Below, in pieces: positions 38,427 to 63,594 of a stretch of DNA of 64,000 bases (the stretch's first letter is position 1; every line of letters begins with the position of its first letter). The DNA comes from Candidatus Harrisonbacteria bacterium. Lineage in GTDB: Bacteria > Patescibacteriota > Minisyncoccia > UBA6257 > 02-FULL-45-10c. The position numbers and the translations under genes are program-made. The notes under the pieces were generated by a model. It did no database searches. It worked only from the letters and a program-made list of their open reading frames with translations, and was not told where the DNA came from. The stretch lies in contig JACROC010000005.1 in the NCBI GenBank assembly GCA_016214655.1, positions 131,078 through 195,077 on the forward strand, read 5' to 3'.

Positions 38427-39165
38427 TCACATTCACAGTCACCTCTTGACTGCCCGATTCAATACTCGGGGCCTTGGCTGCCGCAAAAGCGCCTCCGCGG
38501 CCAAATGTCTCATAAACAGGTATTGGGGGCGGATACCCGCCGGCAGACTCGGAAAAAGTCACTACCCGGCCTATCCGGACCCGATTTTGTTTTGCCATCT
38601 CTTTAGCTTTGATAGATGCTTTTTCAAAAGCTTCTTCCCTGGCTACTTTCAGATATTTATCCGGCTCATCAATATTAAAGTTCAGCGATCCAATCTGGTT
38701 AATACCCAATTCCGGCAAGGAGCCTAAAATTTTACCAATTTTAGAAAAATTGCGTATCTTCACCAAAACGGTTTGCGTTAAAGTATAGCCGCTGATAAAA
38801 GTTTTCTTCGCCTTTTCATCATATTCATAACGCGGAAACAAATTATATCCGACAGTCTTTACATCTTTATCCGCAACGCCTTGTTCTTTTATAAATTGAA
38901 TTGTGGTATTCATTGTTTTATTATTCTCATCCGCAATTTTCTCAGGATCTGCTCCCTCGCTTACTACCGAAAATGTAAAAGTTGTTACATCCGGAGAAAC
39001 CGTGGTTTTACCTTCCGCGCTGACTATTAAAGTCCGTGACGGATATAAAGATCCCTGATATTTATAAAGCGTTTTCAAAGAAGACAGCCCTAATAAAATT
39101 AATACTAATAAAGACGCGTTGACCAACCACCAAAACCAATTTTTTAATTTCTCTGGATTAAACAT
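38404..39165 (-). CDS. SIMPL/DUF541-domain secreted protein.
   Basis: N-terminal anchor and an alternating beta pattern resembling SIMPL-family proteins. Confidence 0.4.
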   Translation of the reverse strand: MFNPEKLKNWFWWLVNASLLVLILLGLSSLKTLYKYQGSLYPSRTLIVSAEGKTTVSPDVTTFTFSVVSEGADPEKIADENNKTMNTTIQFIKEQGVADKDVKTVGYNLFPRYEYDEKAKKTFISGYTLTQTVLVKIRNFSKIGKILGSLPELGINQIGSLNFNIDEPDKYLKVAREEAFEKASIKAKEMAKQNRVRIGRVVTFSESAGGYPPPIPVYETFGRGGAFAAAKAPSIESGSQEVTVNVSVTYEIR

Positions 39166-39877
39166 AAGAAATCATTTTTTTTACTTCTTCTTTTTTCAGA
39201 CTGGCGCCGCCGACAAGGGCGCCGTCCACCTCCTTATATTTTAAGTAGTCTCTTAGATTTCGGGAATCAACTGAACCGCCGTACAATATTTTAGGGTTTA
39301 GGGTATAGGGTTTAGCGTTCAGGATCTTTCTGATATATTTTATAGTTTCTAATGCTGATTCTGGGGTTTCGGGATTGCCAGTGCCGATTGCCCAAACAGG
39401 TTCATAAGCTACGATAAAAGGGTTTAGGGTATAGGGTCTAGGGTATAGAAAGAGGCCAATTTTTAATTGGCGCTCGATTACTGCTTCTTTTTTGCCAGCA
39501 TTTTTTTCTTCAATAGTTTCGCCAACGCAAAGAACCGGGATCAGTTTATTCTCGGCGGCGGCTTTCATTTTTTTAGCTACCATTTCATCTGTTTCATCAA
39601 ACTTATGCCGGCGCTCTGAATGGCCAATGATAACGTATTTCACCCTAACGCTTTTAAGTTCTTTTGCTGAAACTTCTCCGGTAAAAGCGCCTTTTTCTTC
39701 GTAAAAAAGATCTTGGGCTCCCAGCCGAGATTTTTTTAAAACTTTTCCTACTTCTTCCAAAAAAGGAAATGGCGGCGCCACTACGACATTTTTATAATCA
39801 CTGGCTTTTGCCAAAGAAAGCGCCTCTTTGAGAGTGGCTGGATTCATTTTCCAGTTTAAAATCAGCAGCTTTGTCAT
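39158..39877 (-). CDS. tpiA: Triosephosphate isomerase.
   Basis: VIIGHSERR and AYEPVWAIGTG signatures, plus YGGSV. Confidence 0.9.
   Translation of the reverse strand: MTKLLILNWKMNPATLKEALSLAKASDYKNVVVAPPFPFLEEVGKVLKKSRLGAQDLFYEEKGAFTGEVSAKELKSVRVKYVIIGHSERRHKFDETDEMVAKKMKAAAENKLIPVLCVGETIEEKNAGKKEAVIERQLKIGLFLYPRPYTLNPFIVAYEPVWAIGTGNPETPESALETIKYIRKILNAKPYTLNPKILYGGSVDSRNLRDYLKYKEVDGALVGGASLKKEEVKKMISYV
39291..39314. repeat. G-tract repeat copy 1 (TAGGGTTTAGGGTATAGGGTTTAG) inside tpiA. It contains the 18-nt core that encodes PYTLNP on the minus strand.
   Basis: The identical 18-mer also occurs at 39426-39443. Confidence 0.6.
39422..39451. repeat. G-tract repeat copy 2 (GGGTTTAGGGTATAGGGTCTAGGGTATAG) inside tpiA, a canonical G3-N4-G3-N4-G3-N4-G3 motif on the plus (template) strand.
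   Basis: Four GGG runs with 4-nt spacers. Shares AGGGTATAGGGT with the rpsD-rpoA intergenic repeat. Confidence 0.6.
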
Positions 39878-39926: not shown

Positions 39927-41001
39927 TTAATTTCGTAAAGAAAACCAAACCTCATTTAAAAGTCTCTCGCGTAACTCATAAGTGTTAGCATGAGACAAAG
40001 CGCCAAGATAAGATTGTAATGATTGTTCAAGTGTTATTTTAGTAATATATCCTAGGTTATATTCTTTGATGCGTTTCCGTATTTTTGTAAATATGCGATG
40101 TTTTGTCTTGATTCGTATCAACCGATACTTTGGAAATATCACATGGCCAAGAAAATCAATGCCTTGATGTAACTTACGAATTATGATTTTCTTTGGATGT
40201 AGCTCCAAAGCAAGTTTCGTCTCAAGAAACTCATTGATCTGCGGCAAAAATTTTTCTAAATAATCCTGATTTTTCGAAACAATAACAAAATCATCGGTAT
40301 AGCGAATATAGTATTTTACTTTTAACCTATGTTTCATAAACTGATCAAATTCGTTCATATAGATATTGGCGAAAAGCTGCGAAGTCAAATTCCCTATCGG
40401 AATACCTTGCGCGGCGATTCTACTCTCTCTCTCTCTCTCTCTCTCGGGCAAACGTCACGCTTTTATAACTTTCAATAATAGATTCCAGAAGCCAAATGGT
40501 GTCACTATCTTTGATACGCTTTTTGATGATGGAAAGCAGGGTTACGTGATCAACGCTGTCAAAAAACTTCCTAATATCGCATTTCAATATAAAGCAAGGA
40601 TTGGCGCCATTCTTACTGACCTTTCTCACTGCTCTTTCCAAAGCTTCCACGCCTCTATGAGTTCCGTAACCGATGCGACAGGAAAACGAGGTAGAAATAA
40701 AGGTCGATTCAAAAATCGGATTGATAATCGAGAAAATAGCATGGTGCAGAACACGATCCCGAACTACCGCTTTATGAATGTGCCGTTGTTTCGGATCCTG
40801 TATATAAAAACCGGTATATGGACCGTGTTGGTAAGTTTTATTTTTCAATTCTCGTTGAAGCTGAAAAATATTTTCCTCCAGATTCCATTCAAACCGAAGC
40901 GCATCAGATTTTTTCCGCTTATCGATTTTAAAAGCCTCCCAGGCTGAAAAAAGATTCTCCGATGAAATAATTTTTGTAAACAGATTTTTATAAATTTTCA
41001 T
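39927..41001 (-). CDS. DGR-type reverse transcriptase in two ORFs: 40420-41001 (RT motifs 1-3) and 39927-40451 (motifs 4-7). The break is a frameshift inside an (AG)11 tract. One extra AG unit, or two fewer, restores a single frame.
   Basis: YACRIGYGTH, LKCDIRKFFDSVDH, the GIPIGNLTSQ hallmark of DGR RTs, and YTDDFV (YxDD). The N-terminal ORF ends ...FARERERERE* and the second ORF begins (M)PERERERESRIAAQGIPIGNLTSQ. Confidence 0.85.
40423..40445. repeat. Perfect dinucleotide microsatellite (CT)11C on the plus strand, which is (AG)11 in the RT sense. It is the site of the RT frameshift.
   Basis: Read directly; this is the only long dinucleotide tract seen in the window. Confidence 0.9.
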
Positions 41002-41015
41002 AAATAATTACCACT

Positions 41016-41366
41016 ATGGATGACTTCGATATACCAATCTTTAAAAAATCATATGAGCTCTATAAGACCTTTTACGGATATCGGCTCATGGTCTCCAAAC
41101 AAGATCGCTATACCCTGTGGCAGCGCTGTGAAAATACTATTTTGGATCTCTTGGAAAACATCTTATTGGCCAGCCAATTATCCAAAGAAGCTAAATTGCC
41201 GGCATTGGAAAAATCCAGCCTGAAATTGAATCTCCTTCGGATTCTCCTCAGGCTTTCCAAAGAAACCAAGGCAATCGACAATAAAAAATATCTTTACTTG
41301 GAAGAAATAATAGATGAAATAGGCAGGATGCTCGGCGGCTGGATCAAATCCACCAAAGATCGCTAA
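41016..41366 (+). CDS. avd: Accessory variability determinant (Avd), a four-helix-bundle DGR component.
   Basis: C-terminal EEIIDEIGRMLGGWIKSTKDR closely parallels Bordetella phage bAvd (...AEVGRILGSWIARVNRK). Size is 116 aa. Confidence 0.8.
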   Translation: MDDFDIPIFKKSYELYKTFYGYRLMVSKQDRYTLWQRCENTILDLLENILLASQLSKEAKLPALEKSSLKLNLLRILLRLSKETKAIDNKKYLYLEEIIDEIGRMLGGWIKSTKDR

Positions 41367-41416: not shown

Positions 41417-41535
41417 ACTTCCGAGAGGCACCGAGACCAATGTTGTTCCACCTGTTGTCATCCCAGTTGTTGTTGACGTTCAGGCCATTGCCGTCGAAGT
41501 TGCCCACATTGACGCGGTTGCCGTCCGACGTGACA
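41417..41535 (-). other. DGR template repeat (TR).
   Basis: 118-bp match to the 3' end of the target gene (41952-42070) with 22 mismatches, 21 of them at adenines of the TR sense strand. The TR sense translation is Asn-rich (NRVNVGNFDGNGLNVNNNWDDNRWNN). Confidence 0.85.
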
Positions 41536-41820
41536 AATTTGCTCGCCCCCGTCTTTGGCACTGAAAGTCGAGGTTTGCTGTCGCCTAAGGCGACTTATAT
41601 CCTCTTCTTTCTGAATTTTATTTAGGAGCACTCCGATGTTCATCGGAGACCTCCGCTAGAAGCAAGCAAGAAGTTCTGTTCTCCATCTTTATTCACACGC
41701 TATCGCACTCCGTAGAGATGCGACACTCTGGTGACGTCTCAAAGATGAGACATCTTGCGGGATTAAACCGTGGCCTAATCTACATTAGCAAGATATTTAT
41801 ATTGTAATAAATTTGTAGAA

Positions 41821-41860
41821 ATAAAAAAAGAAGCCCCCGGCGCAAAAATCGCGCCGGAGG
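41821..41860 (-). terminator. Rho-independent terminator downstream of the DGR target gene (CCGGCGC-GATTTTTG-GCGCCGG, then a T-run).
   Basis: Hairpin and U-tract on the minus strand. Confidence 0.5.
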
Positions 41861-41946
41861 CTCAAGAGTTCAAGAGAGACAATCCCTCCAGAACTCAAAC
41901 TTCATCCTTCGACTTCGCTCAAGATGACCCTGAGCTTGTCGAAGGG

Positions 41947-42774
41947 TCAGAACTTCCGAGAGGCACCGAGACCAAGGGAGCCCCCCCTGCCGTCATCCCA
42001 GCCGCGGAAGACGAACAGGCCATCGCCGTCGAAGAAGCCCACAACGACGCGGTAGCCGTCCGACGTGACATCCGTGGTTCGCGCATACCTCGTCGGGTTC
42101 AGATAGATGCCGTTTTTCCGGTAATAGAGAATGTCCTTGAGGACTTCCTCTACTGCGGTCGGCACCTCGTACCCTTGAGGCAGCATAGCCACTTGGTCCT
42201 GGTAGGTCTTAGACTCGGAGTTCGGAACGATCTCCAGAGGCATCAGATACCACCGGAACTTCGCGGTCAGCTTGGTTGCCCAGGTTTGCTGAGAATACCA
42301 CGAACTGGGCGCGTAGCTTGCGAACTTTGGCTGGCCGTTTTGCGGATGCAGCTCCTGCAAGTGGAGGATGGTGAGCGGTTTCCCGTTCACGTTCTCGAGC
42401 CCCAGAAACGCGAAGTGCGTTTCTTTGACTGTCTTGCCTTTGACGAGCGGGCAAGGGGCGTTGAGAACATCCTCTCCCCACGGGAACTCAGCCACTTCTC
42501 GGAGCTGCTTCTTGGTGAACTTCACGCTGTACAGCGCGGTCCACTCTTCCACTCCGAAGAAGTTCTTGCCCTGAATGGCGCGAACCACCTGGTGATTCGC
42601 CGAACCCGACGCTTTGCCGCGAAGCATGAACTCGGCTACGCGTTTCGCGTAATCCGGCTCAGCCCGCAAGCGAGCGAGGTGCTCGGTTGAGACTCCGTGA
42701 TCCTGGAGCGCTTTCAAGGTCGCTCCGACTTCTCCGTAACTGGCTTTCCAGAGACCGCCTGGGTTTGTGCTCAT
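41947..42774 (-). CDS. DGR target (variable) protein with a C-terminal variable region (...YRVVVGFFDGDGLFVFRGWDDGRGGSLGLGASRKF).
   Basis: The C-terminal 40 codons correspond to TR-encoded Asn positions. RBS AGGAGGTAA. The GC-rich 3' end (GGTCTCGGTGCCTCTCGGAAG) is IMH-like, and an 8-bp inverted repeat (41906-13 / 41938-45) abuts the stop. Confidence 0.8.
   Translation of the reverse strand: MSTNPGGLWKASYGEVGATLKALQDHGVSTEHLARLRAEPDYAKRVAEFMLRGKASGSANHQVVRAIQGKNFFGVEEWTALYSVKFTKKQLREVAEFPWGEDVLNAPCPLVKGKTVKETHFAFLGLENVNGKPLTILHLQELHPQNGQPKFASYAPSSWYSQQTWATKLTAKFRWYLMPLEIVPNSESKTYQDQVAMLPQGYEVPTAVEEVLKDILYYRKNGIYLNPTRYARTTDVTSDGYRVVVGFFDGDGLFVFRGWDDGRGGSLGLGASRKF
41952..42070 (-). other. DGR variable repeat (VR) at the 3' end of the target CDS.
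   Basis: See TR above. All but one difference map to TR adenines. Confidence 0.85.
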
Positions 42775-42854
42775 GACACTTACCTCCTTTGTTTTCCGTC
42801 TTTCTCTCTTTGTCTTTTGGAGACTTTAGAGAGTTTGCCCTGTCCGGGGCACGG

Positions 42855-62896: not shown

Positions 62897-62968
62897 TTTA
62901 GTTAGGGGTTAGGGGTTAGGGGTTAGGGGTTAGAAATTTACTAAACCCTCAACCCTATACCCTCGACC
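62891..62968. repeat. Telomere-like G-tract repeat with an inverted copy. (TTAGGGG)x4 sits at 62891-62920, and the C-rich counterpart (AAACCCTCAACCCTATACCCTCGACCCTCA) at 62937-62968. G-quadruplex motifs occur on both strands and the two halves can form a long imperfect hairpin.
   Basis: Read directly. It lies between the rpsD stop and the rpoA ATG; the G-run starts 2 nt after the ATG on the plus strand. Confidence 0.7.
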
Positions 62969-62982
62969 CTCAATTTATTAAT

Positions 62983-63594
62983 TTATTTAGAATAATAATC
63001 GACGACCATATTTACATCAAACAAAACCTCCATATCTTTAGGCAAGGAAACCACTTCGCCTTCAAATTTTTCCTTGTCCAATTTTAGCCAAATTGGCGCT
63101 TCGTATTTTTTTAATCGTTCTCCCAAATCTTTTAATTGCGCGATATCTTTAGATTGCGGTCGGATACCAATTTTATCTCTAACCCGCACCAAATAAGAAG
63201 GGATACCGACTTTTTTTCCGTTAACAACAATATGCCCGTGGCTGACCAATTGGCGCGCCAGAGATCTCGACGGAGCAAGGCCTAACCGAAAAACCGCATT
63301 ATCCAGTCTGCGCTCCAATAATTGAATGATCATCTGTCCGGTTACACCCGGATTCTTAACGGCAGTGACAAAAATCTTTTTCATCTGTGCTTCCCGGATG
63401 CCATAACTGTATTTAATTTTTTGCTTTTCCTGCAGCTGTTGGCCAAATTCCGAATAAGCATGCCGGTCTTTACCATGCAATCCAGGCCGATATGCTTTTT
63501 TGATCATTACACATTTTGGTGAATTACAACGATGCGCTTTCAAGAAAAGCTTAGTTCCCAATGACCGTTCTTTTTTTTCTCTGGTATCAAACAT
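62983..63594 (-). CDS. rpsD: 30S ribosomal protein S4.
   Basis: N-terminal Zn-ribbon-like CNSPKC and an S4 RNA-binding domain (GHIVVNGKKVGIPSYLV). Confidence 0.9.
   Translation of the reverse strand: MFDTREKKERSLGTKLFLKAHRCNSPKCVMIKKAYRPGLHGKDRHAYSEFGQQLQEKQKIKYSYGIREAQMKKIFVTAVKNPGVTGQMIIQLLERRLDNAVFRLGLAPSRSLARQLVSHGHIVVNGKKVGIPSYLVRVRDKIGIRPQSKDIAQLKDLGERLKKYEAPIWLKLDKEKFEGEVVSLPKDMEVLFDVNMVVDYYSK

Follow-up and report, generated by a model that had tools for sequence, protein, structure and literature searches.

In a 64,000-nucleotide stretch of DNA from a Candidatus Harrisonbacteria bacterium (contig JACROC010000005.1, positions 131,078 to 195,077; the whole stretch is called the window here, and positions are counted from its first letter), the gene for the reverse transcriptase (RT) of a diversity-generating retroelement (DGR) is split into two reading frames inside a perfect dinucleotide repeat, G(AG)11. 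We consider it probable that this tract, which is conserved among relatives, works by phase variation as a hypermutable repeat switch on the activity of the DGR RT. The idea of a repeat-based ON/OFF switch came from a sequence-only reading of the window. It is now supported by at least 239 loci that carry the tract, by the three frame states found among them, by differences of a single repeat unit in the DNA of near-identical contigs, by purifying selection on both halves of the gene, and by retrohoming in one lineage that carries such a tract.

The Split Reverse Transcriptase Gene

The tract, located with Tandem Repeats Finder and a regular-expression scan, occupies positions 40423..40445 on the minus strand and encodes (RE)n. 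Here the minus strand reads ...TTTGCCC-G(AG)11-TAGAATCGCC... (in wider context ...AGCGTGACGTTTGCCC-G(AG)11-TAGAATCGCCGCGCAAGGTATTCCGATAGGGAATTTGACTTCGCAG...), which corresponds to (CT)11C on the plus strand at 40423-40445. Upstream lies the N-terminal half of the RT (193 aa; 40420..41001, minus strand; NCBI MBI4992071.1), which carries motifs 1-3 and covers positions 1-183 of the family hidden Markov model (HMM). The C-terminal half (174 aa; 39927..40451, minus strand; NCBI MBI4992070.1) carries motifs 4-7 (GIPIGNLTSQ...YTDD) and covers HMM positions 184-347. In the NCBI annotation of this metagenome-assembled genome (MAG; locus tags HZB99_0253x, proteins MBI4992070-72), the two halves are separate proteins. 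The sequence-only reading had assigned motifs 1-3 and motifs 4-7 to different frames, and the open reading frames (ORFs) 41001..40420 and 40451..39927 confirm this. The 174-aa ORF is in the +1 frame relative to the 193-aa ORF, and the latter ends at a TAG codon (40422-40420) immediately 3' of the tract. The overlap of the two ORFs across the perfect (AG)11 tract was also described correctly in coordinates and frames.

As in repeat-mediated phase-variable loci, the repeat is perfect, lies within an ORF, and has a unit length that is not divisible by 3; 11 AG units are present here. At the assembled length the RT reading frame is split at +1 (a state referred to as OFF, with ON denoting an uninterrupted frame), and one unit repairs it. 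The prediction that the ORFs would be joined by the gain of one AG unit or the loss of two held when the tract was edited in silico: (AG)12 opens a single ORF of 358 aa and (AG)9 one of 356 aa, reading ...SVTFARERERERESRIAAQGIPIGNLTSQ... across the tract, whereas no joined ORF results from (AG)10 or (AG)13. The change from a truncated to a full-length product with repeat length was followed by direct translation, both of these variants of the window and of natural ON/OFF pairs. Within the 64-kb window the tract is the sole dinucleotide repeat of five or more units, and there is no mononucleotide run of nine or more. With two mismatches tolerated, a tract-like match occurred in 0 of 100 dinucleotide-preserving shuffles.

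The joined protein matches RVT_1 (7.1e-22), contains both GIPIGNLTSQ and YTDD, and can be aligned over 99% of its length with upwards of 7,900 RTs from Patescibacteria, among them thousands of 340-360 aa (identity up to 70%). The two halves reach 350 and 279 bits when compared with the family HMM, and neither has a further lesion. Among solved chains, the Bordetella DGR RT (8ub7_A) comes closest; it aligns over its full length (E=2.9e-60) and has a linker that is 9 residues shorter precisely at the tract site. An AlphaFold2 model of the joined RT, computed from the family alignment, has a mean predicted local distance difference test score (pLDDT) of 84.9 and a predicted template modeling score of 0.79. 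Its low-confidence stretches are residues 65-70 and 184-195; the second of these is encoded by the tract and is the only long segment with a pLDDT below 50. Alignment and model both place the tract in the linker between RT motifs 3 and 4, where it had been expected, and according to the model this linker is a disordered surface loop. In an alignment of the 120 best homologues the length of the linker is highly variable; about 10 of them carry (RE)2-6 at the position of the tract, and many relatives have no repeat there.

The Tract Across Patescibacteria

Species-representative genomes, metagenomes, and 2.9 million viral contigs were scanned with the pattern GAGAGAGAGA-N15-45-CCNATHGGNAAYYTNAC, in which CCNATHGGNAAYYTNAC is the back-translated PIGNLT motif. 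A perfect (GA)n tract at the loop between motifs 3 and 4 was found at no fewer than 119 genome loci and 120 metagenome loci, at least 239 in total. All locus counts given below refer to this set, and percentages hold among the matches listed. The pattern demands at least five GA units, and the counts are numbers of matches rather than a frequency of the repeat among all Patescibacteria DGR RTs. The viral contigs gave zero matches to the generic tract pattern, and the tract-bearing RTs appear to be cellular. Among the loci listed, the tracts are 11-71 nt long (median 21) and all are perfect. Their hosts are labelled as many Patescibacteria lineages, among them Wolfe-, Nomura-, Taylor-, Yanofsky-, Lloyd-, Uhr-, Falkow-, Magasanik-, Moran-, Berkel-, Doudna-, and Peregrinibacteria as well as Saccharibacteria. 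The sequence-only reading had named, as a case against a switch, that relatives might carry an intact RT with neither a repeat at this position nor any length polymorphism. One part of this stands, as many relatives are indeed repeat-free; the other does not, since these loci do carry the tract and its length varies among them.

Frame states were called by comparing the family HMM with ORF fragments in the three forward frames and were verified by direct translation. All breaks in split loci map to the tract, at about 181-190 of the HMM. The 239 listed loci comprise 51 in frame, 95 at +1, and 82 at +2, with 11 that could not be classified (mostly at contig ends). Clustering of the flanks at 97% identity left 209 classifiable clusters, 23% of which are ON, 42% at +1, and 35% at +2; the genome and metagenome collections agree in this distribution. 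Gene catalogues also hold many proteins that consist of the N-terminal half ending in RERERE and an out-of-frame tail.

When the nearest neighbours of the C-terminal halves were determined, tract-bearing RTs grouped together (206 of 227), so the repeat is inherited and has long been maintained rather than being a scattered accident. It is also specific to this site: the 1.45 Mb of DNA around the 239 loci contain a single unrelated dinucleotide tract of six or more units, and these genomes are therefore not generally repeat-rich. The flanks of the tract have the consensus C-(GA)n-G-TAA, with a 5' base that is nearly always C and a 3' TAA in 78 of 240 loci. Because the 3' flank is read in different frames in RTs that are in frame (ESK or RVN), this conservation seems to be at the level of DNA. 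Two observations concern the assemblies themselves. Twelve loci (L011, L012, L027, L031, L068, L073, L076, L092, L099, L108, L111, and L119) come from MAGs labelled Gammaproteobacteria, Bdellovibrionales, Actinomycetota, or Syntrophorhabdaceae, and these labels probably reflect errors of binning or labelling in sets of co-assembled MAGs. In L184, a scaffold join (NN, 703-704) at the start of the (GA)n tract links two different RT fragments; evidently, assemblies break or are mis-joined at such tracts.

In more distant RTs of the DGR type, the split at this loop is caused by repeats of another kind, namely (AC)18 in L240 (1357-1392), G10 in L247 (779-788), and G9 in L248 (967-975). This suggests that a frame-switch repeat has been convergently recruited at this loop. 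L050 (about 1530-1570) and L098 (about 1213-1235) have a GA tract followed directly by a G9 run and hence two repeats in one linker. The RT of L249 (protein P0178) is truncated, and the scan found neither the motif-4 pattern nor a repeat in it. We also considered that the tract could serve as a polypurine tract, either as a primer or as another cis element, in analogy to retroviruses. This is unlikely, as (AC)n and G-runs occur at the same site in other lineages and the length and frame of the tract vary freely.

One-Unit Differences Between Near-Identical Contigs

In five independent sets, near-identical contigs from different assemblies carry tracts that are exactly one GA unit apart, and in four of the five sets the difference is one of ON versus OFF. 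L076 and L099 have no mismatch over 4,863 nt and tracts of 29 nt (OFF) and 27 nt (ON). The same is true of L045 and L165, with no mismatch over 3,660 nt and tracts of 18 nt (OFF) and 20 nt (ON). L241 and L242, with 29 nt (OFF), are compared to L243-L246, with 31 nt (ON); four of the comparisons, of 828-997 nt, are free of mismatches, and the longer overlaps of 1,367-1,747 nt contain 4-5. In the protein catalogue, this set (L241-L246) is represented by a 357-aa RT and a 190-aa ORF of the C-terminal half that fall into one 90% cluster. L145 has a tract of 20 nt (ON) as opposed to 18 nt (OFF) in L121 and L155, at 97.8% identity overall. In the remaining set, L073 and L187 (no mismatch over 4,108 nt), both alleles are out of frame, with 25 nt (+2) and 27 nt (+1). 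Mixed frame states are moreover found inside 8 of the flank clusters with at least 97% identity.

Selection and Retrohoming at Tract-Bearing Loci

Outside the tract the RT genes are well preserved, with a disruption elsewhere in about 3 of the 119 genome loci listed. The ratio of nonsynonymous to synonymous substitution rates (dN/dS) was estimated for 14 pairs of related loci that are both OFF, with each half read in its own frame. In 13 of the 14 pairs it lies between 0.03 and 0.19 in both halves, at synonymous divergences (dS) of 0.17-2.4. The exception is the pair L214/L217, with values of 0.29 and 0.51, in which the N-terminal half has low divergence and the C-terminal half comprises 41 codons. 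The split RT genes are thus not pseudogenes, and both of their halves are under purifying selection.

Among loci of at least 4 kb, pairs of a template repeat (TR) and a variable repeat (VR) with adenine-biased differences are present in 68 of 122 OFF loci (56%) and 20 of 34 ON loci (59%), and the numbers of mismatches are similar. Retrohoming can be followed directly in one of the sets described above. L145 (ON) and L155 (OFF) have identical TRs, while their VRs differ at 19 sites, 18 of which are at TR adenines. Outside the VR, the two differ by one substitution and the repeat unit in about 2.9 kb. Both retrohoming and a switch of the tract have therefore taken place since these populations separated. 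A comparison of L145 (1-440) with L155 (3631-4070) also revealed a second hypervariable stretch, upstream of the VR, with about 50 differences and several indels.

A Proposed Repeat Switch and Its Alternatives

The switch that we favour would work as follows. Slipped-strand mispairing during DNA replication, the likely mechanism, would add or remove one AG unit, and with a unit of 2 nt each single gain or loss would shift the RT reading frame. It follows from the 2-nt unit that every OFF length is one step from ON. The allele in the window is OFF (+1), and one added unit would restore the RT of 358 aa. In ON cells the RT, together with the accessory protein Avd, would copy the TR into the VR with adenine-specific errors, whereas OFF cells would presumably make no RT and keep their current VR. 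A population would then consist mostly of stable cells, with a smaller number that diversify. Switching within a clone would be expected to be reversible and frequent, and the Harrisonbacteria population sampled here may well be heterogeneous in tract length.

Two alternative explanations of the split gene had already been named in the sequence-only reading. The RT might be dead, with the DGR a decaying remnant and the repeat a chance site of breakage. The gene is indeed split as assembled and annotated as two proteins, and one of the mismatches between TR and VR in the window is off adenine. Against this, both halves are complete, and Avd, TR, VR, and target ORF are likewise intact. The tract is free of the interruptions that decaying repeats gather, and the dN/dS values of the family are low. 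We consider a dead RT to be very improbable. An assembly or sequencing error at this locus, with an intact RT and (AG)12 or (AG)9 in the true genome, is somewhat less far-fetched and still improbable. There is only one assembly of the organism, repeats are prone to stutter and indel errors, and a few of the related loci are from long-read assemblies. However, about 77% of the 228 classifiable loci among those listed are out of frame, in data from many independent studies and assemblers, while the remainder of each RT gene is almost never disrupted. Tracts of 20-30 nt also fit well inside short reads, and even if its length had been miscalled, the locus would have a repeat one step from OFF. 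Taken together, the family-wide tract, the selection, and the polymorphism argue strongly against a dead RT and make it unlikely that a simple assembly error explains the pattern in general. Translation of the split RT as two polypeptides was rejected as well, since there is no conserved start before the C-terminal half; the tract is mostly preceded by NNC, and ATG, GTG, and TTG are absent there.

Several observations weigh against a switch as described. A scan of metagenomes with the window's own flanks yielded no second sample of the locus, and the RT halves and Avd are all singletons at the level of 90% clusters, so that the evidence for polymorphism comes from relatives only. All of the data come from consensus assemblies, and some sequencing technologies readily make errors at repeats. 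ON alleles make up 23% where one third would be expected from an unbiased random walk (binomial p=0.0012, uncorrected for phylogeny, with loci that are not phylogenetically independent), and strong purifying selection is also seen in lineages sampled only as OFF. Both of these would also be expected if OFF alleles were expressed through slippage at the level of RNA. Lastly, the tracts of L101, L119, and L106 (94% identity) are 13, 25, and 31 nt long and all at +1, and those of L001 and L044 are 71 and 35 nt long; in both groups the lengths differ by multiples of 6, and the +1 state is kept. This hints that the OFF frame itself can be conserved, in a small sample in which such an outcome has a chance of about 1 in 27.

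These points lead to the alternative of programmed recoding, in which the out-of-frame state is the normal one and a small fraction of full-length RT results when RNA polymerase or the ribosome shifts by one GA unit. The tract would then be a dimmer that keeps a mutagenic enzyme scarce, and changes of its length in DNA would switch expression between leaky and high. In its strongest form, which we also find rather doubtful, out-of-frame is the default, RT arises mainly via 2-nt slippage, (GA)n, (AC)n, and G-runs have been convergently recruited to throttle a self-mutagenic RT, and DNA length only tunes the outcome. Recoding agrees with the shortage of ON alleles, with the strong purifying selection on both halves in OFF-OFF pairs, with the OFF loci that retain adenine-biased TR/VR pairs as frequently as ON loci, and with the relatives that kept the OFF frame through the length changes just described. 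A GA tract would moreover permit perfect re-pairing of the tRNA or of the RNA-DNA hybrid after a 2-nt shift, with the OFF classes one unit from ON, and within the gene, G+C content and folding stability are highest in the window of 45 nt that follows the tract (mean -9.3 kcal/mol). On the other hand, the frame relationship is not fixed, as +1, +2, and in-frame states all occur, often in one near-identical set. A stop codon directly follows the tract in only 25 of 96 loci of the +1 class and 6 of 82 of the +2 class (31 of 178 split loci), and a frameshift stimulated by a stop codon was rejected since this stop is not conserved. The signal of a stimulatory RNA structure after the tract is weak once composition is controlled: local G+C-richness and the lowest folding energy are accompanied by z-scores against shuffles with a mean of -0.75 (control windows -0.1 to -0.44) and -0.98 for the window's own flank. 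In some families, complementarity between the flanks of the tract can be seen by eye. One-unit slippage on a dinucleotide tract is a kind of recoding that is not established in bacteria; to our knowledge, bacterial transcriptional slippage has been established for homopolymeric runs of A or T and not for dinucleotide repeats. The polymorphism in DNA is, in addition, already sufficient to explain expression. On balance we regard recoding as an unlikely account of the tract, although less so than an assembly error, and prefer the repeat switch.

The Surrounding Retroelement and Other Features of the Window

Apart from the split frame of its RT, the locus is a complete DGR with RT, Avd, TR, VR, and target. 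The gene of the Avd-type accessory protein, a four-helix bundle, lies at 41016..41366 on the plus strand and is divergent from the RT gene. It matches Pfam bAvd above the cut-off of that family (E=1.6e-15), and with 76.3 bits falls just below the cut-off of 80 of NCBIfam DivGenRetAVD. It is followed by the AAC-rich TR of 119 nt (41417..41535, minus strand) and by the VR (41952..42070, minus strand), which lies at the 3' end of the target gene, ends 3 nt short of its stop codon, and is 82% identical to the TR. Mismatches between the two are at TR adenines in 21 of 22 cases. The target gene itself (41947..42774, minus strand) encodes 275 aa and has no sequence match in Pfam, NCBIfam, or the PDB. 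Its G+C content of 55-59% (window 41800-42850) differs from that of the surroundings at about 40%, with RT, avd, and neighbouring genes at about 30-45%. An avd gene on the opposite strand is the layout of architecture B3, which accounts for 90% of the set from the candidate phyla radiation (CPR; Patescibacteria) of Wu et al. (PMC5758913), and a DGR clade restricted to Patescibacteria was defined by Roux et al. (PMC8144416).

Two other repeat arrays were noticed in the window. At 62901-62987, in the gap between an rpsD-like and an rpoA-like ORF, there are 4.7 copies of a telomere-like heptamer (GTTAGGG) and, 7 nt further on, a run of the CCCTNNA type that complements them imperfectly; the array could fold into a long hairpin or, with its four GGGG runs, a G-quadruplex. 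Heptamer repeats of TTTAGGG/TATAGGG are present in two direct copies (39290-39323 and 39419-39448) in a tpiA-like ORF (39158..39877, minus strand). Both copies translate in frame as PYTLNP and resemble repeat insertions in a housekeeping enzyme.

Implications

DGRs are the only natural system known for targeted protein hypermutation in bacteria. A stochastic switch would suit Patescibacteria, whose genomes are tiny, with few regulators and many DGRs. If our interpretation is correct, these bacteria hedge their bets not only on which variant to display but on whether to mutate at all, and it should be possible to predict how fast the VR turns over from the share of ON alleles in a population. 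The presence of three repeat types at one loop would be a clear case of selection for mutability itself. A practical consequence concerns annotation. About three quarters of the RT genes at the listed loci are annotated as two short ORFs, and DGR surveys that need a full-length RT thus probably under-count the DGRs of Patescibacteria or call them inactive.

Comparison With Known Systems

The nearest parallel is found in the contingency loci with simple sequence repeats, such as the tetranucleotide repeats of Haemophilus influenzae, the poly-G tracts of Campylobacter and Neisseria, and the CT repeats of Helicobacter pylori oipA. These share with the tract described here a perfect repeat within an ORF, a unit that is not a multiple of 3, a frame that is toggled by one unit, and ON and OFF alleles among near-identical genomes in a gene that is otherwise conserved. 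They are also typical of organisms with few regulators, which fits Patescibacteria. Most of their targets, however, are surface structures or restriction-modification enzymes in host-associated pathogens, whereas here the target is a DGR RT in free-living or episymbiotic groundwater bacteria, and the switch would control a mutagenesis machine rather than a phenotype directly. Further differences are its position in a loop in the middle of a catalytic domain, its translation as (RE)n in the ON state, and its conservation across a radiation at the level of a phylum. Phase variation by simple sequence repeats is the subject of reviews (PMC11868660; PMC11475388) and a survey (PMC3315296). The literature that was searched (full text and DGR surveys) contained no mention of a repeat, a frameshift, or phase variation in the RT of a DGR, nor of a genetic ON/OFF switch inside it; the main CPR DGR paper (Paul et al., 2017, Nat Microbiol) may mention one.

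Phase-variable DNA methyltransferases, or phasevarions, which are among the topics of PMC11475388, resemble the present case in that a repeat switches an enzyme acting on nucleic acids, and a stochastic switch has downstream effects throughout the population. Unlike a methyltransferase, which reversibly alters the expression of many genes, a DGR RT permanently alters one target gene. With the DGR of Bordetella phage BPP-1 (bRT, Avd, TR, and VR), the locus shares an RT that aligns over its full length, an Avd, adenine-specific differences between TR and VR, and a VR at the 3' end of the target. It departs from BPP-1 in its Patescibacteria layout with avd on the opposite strand, and bRT has no repeat in its shorter linker.

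Insertion sequence elements of the IS1 and IS3 families keep transposase levels low via programmed frameshifting or transcriptional slippage. They too have a potentially harmful DNA-modifying enzyme encoded in two frames, with a full-length protein that is rare. They rely on a fixed -1 relation, a slippery heptamer or A-run, and a stimulatory structure, whereas in the RT genes the frame varies between 0, +1, and +2 and there is no conserved stimulator that we could find. Finally, a mutator state is toggled by tandem-repeat switches in genes for mismatch repair, as reported for Salmonella mutL among others. There, as proposed here, repeat length turns a mutation-generating state on or off, a form of second-order evolvability. 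In the mutL type, the loss of repair raises mutation throughout the genome, while the switch proposed for the DGR RT would govern targeted, template-directed hypermutation of a single gene.

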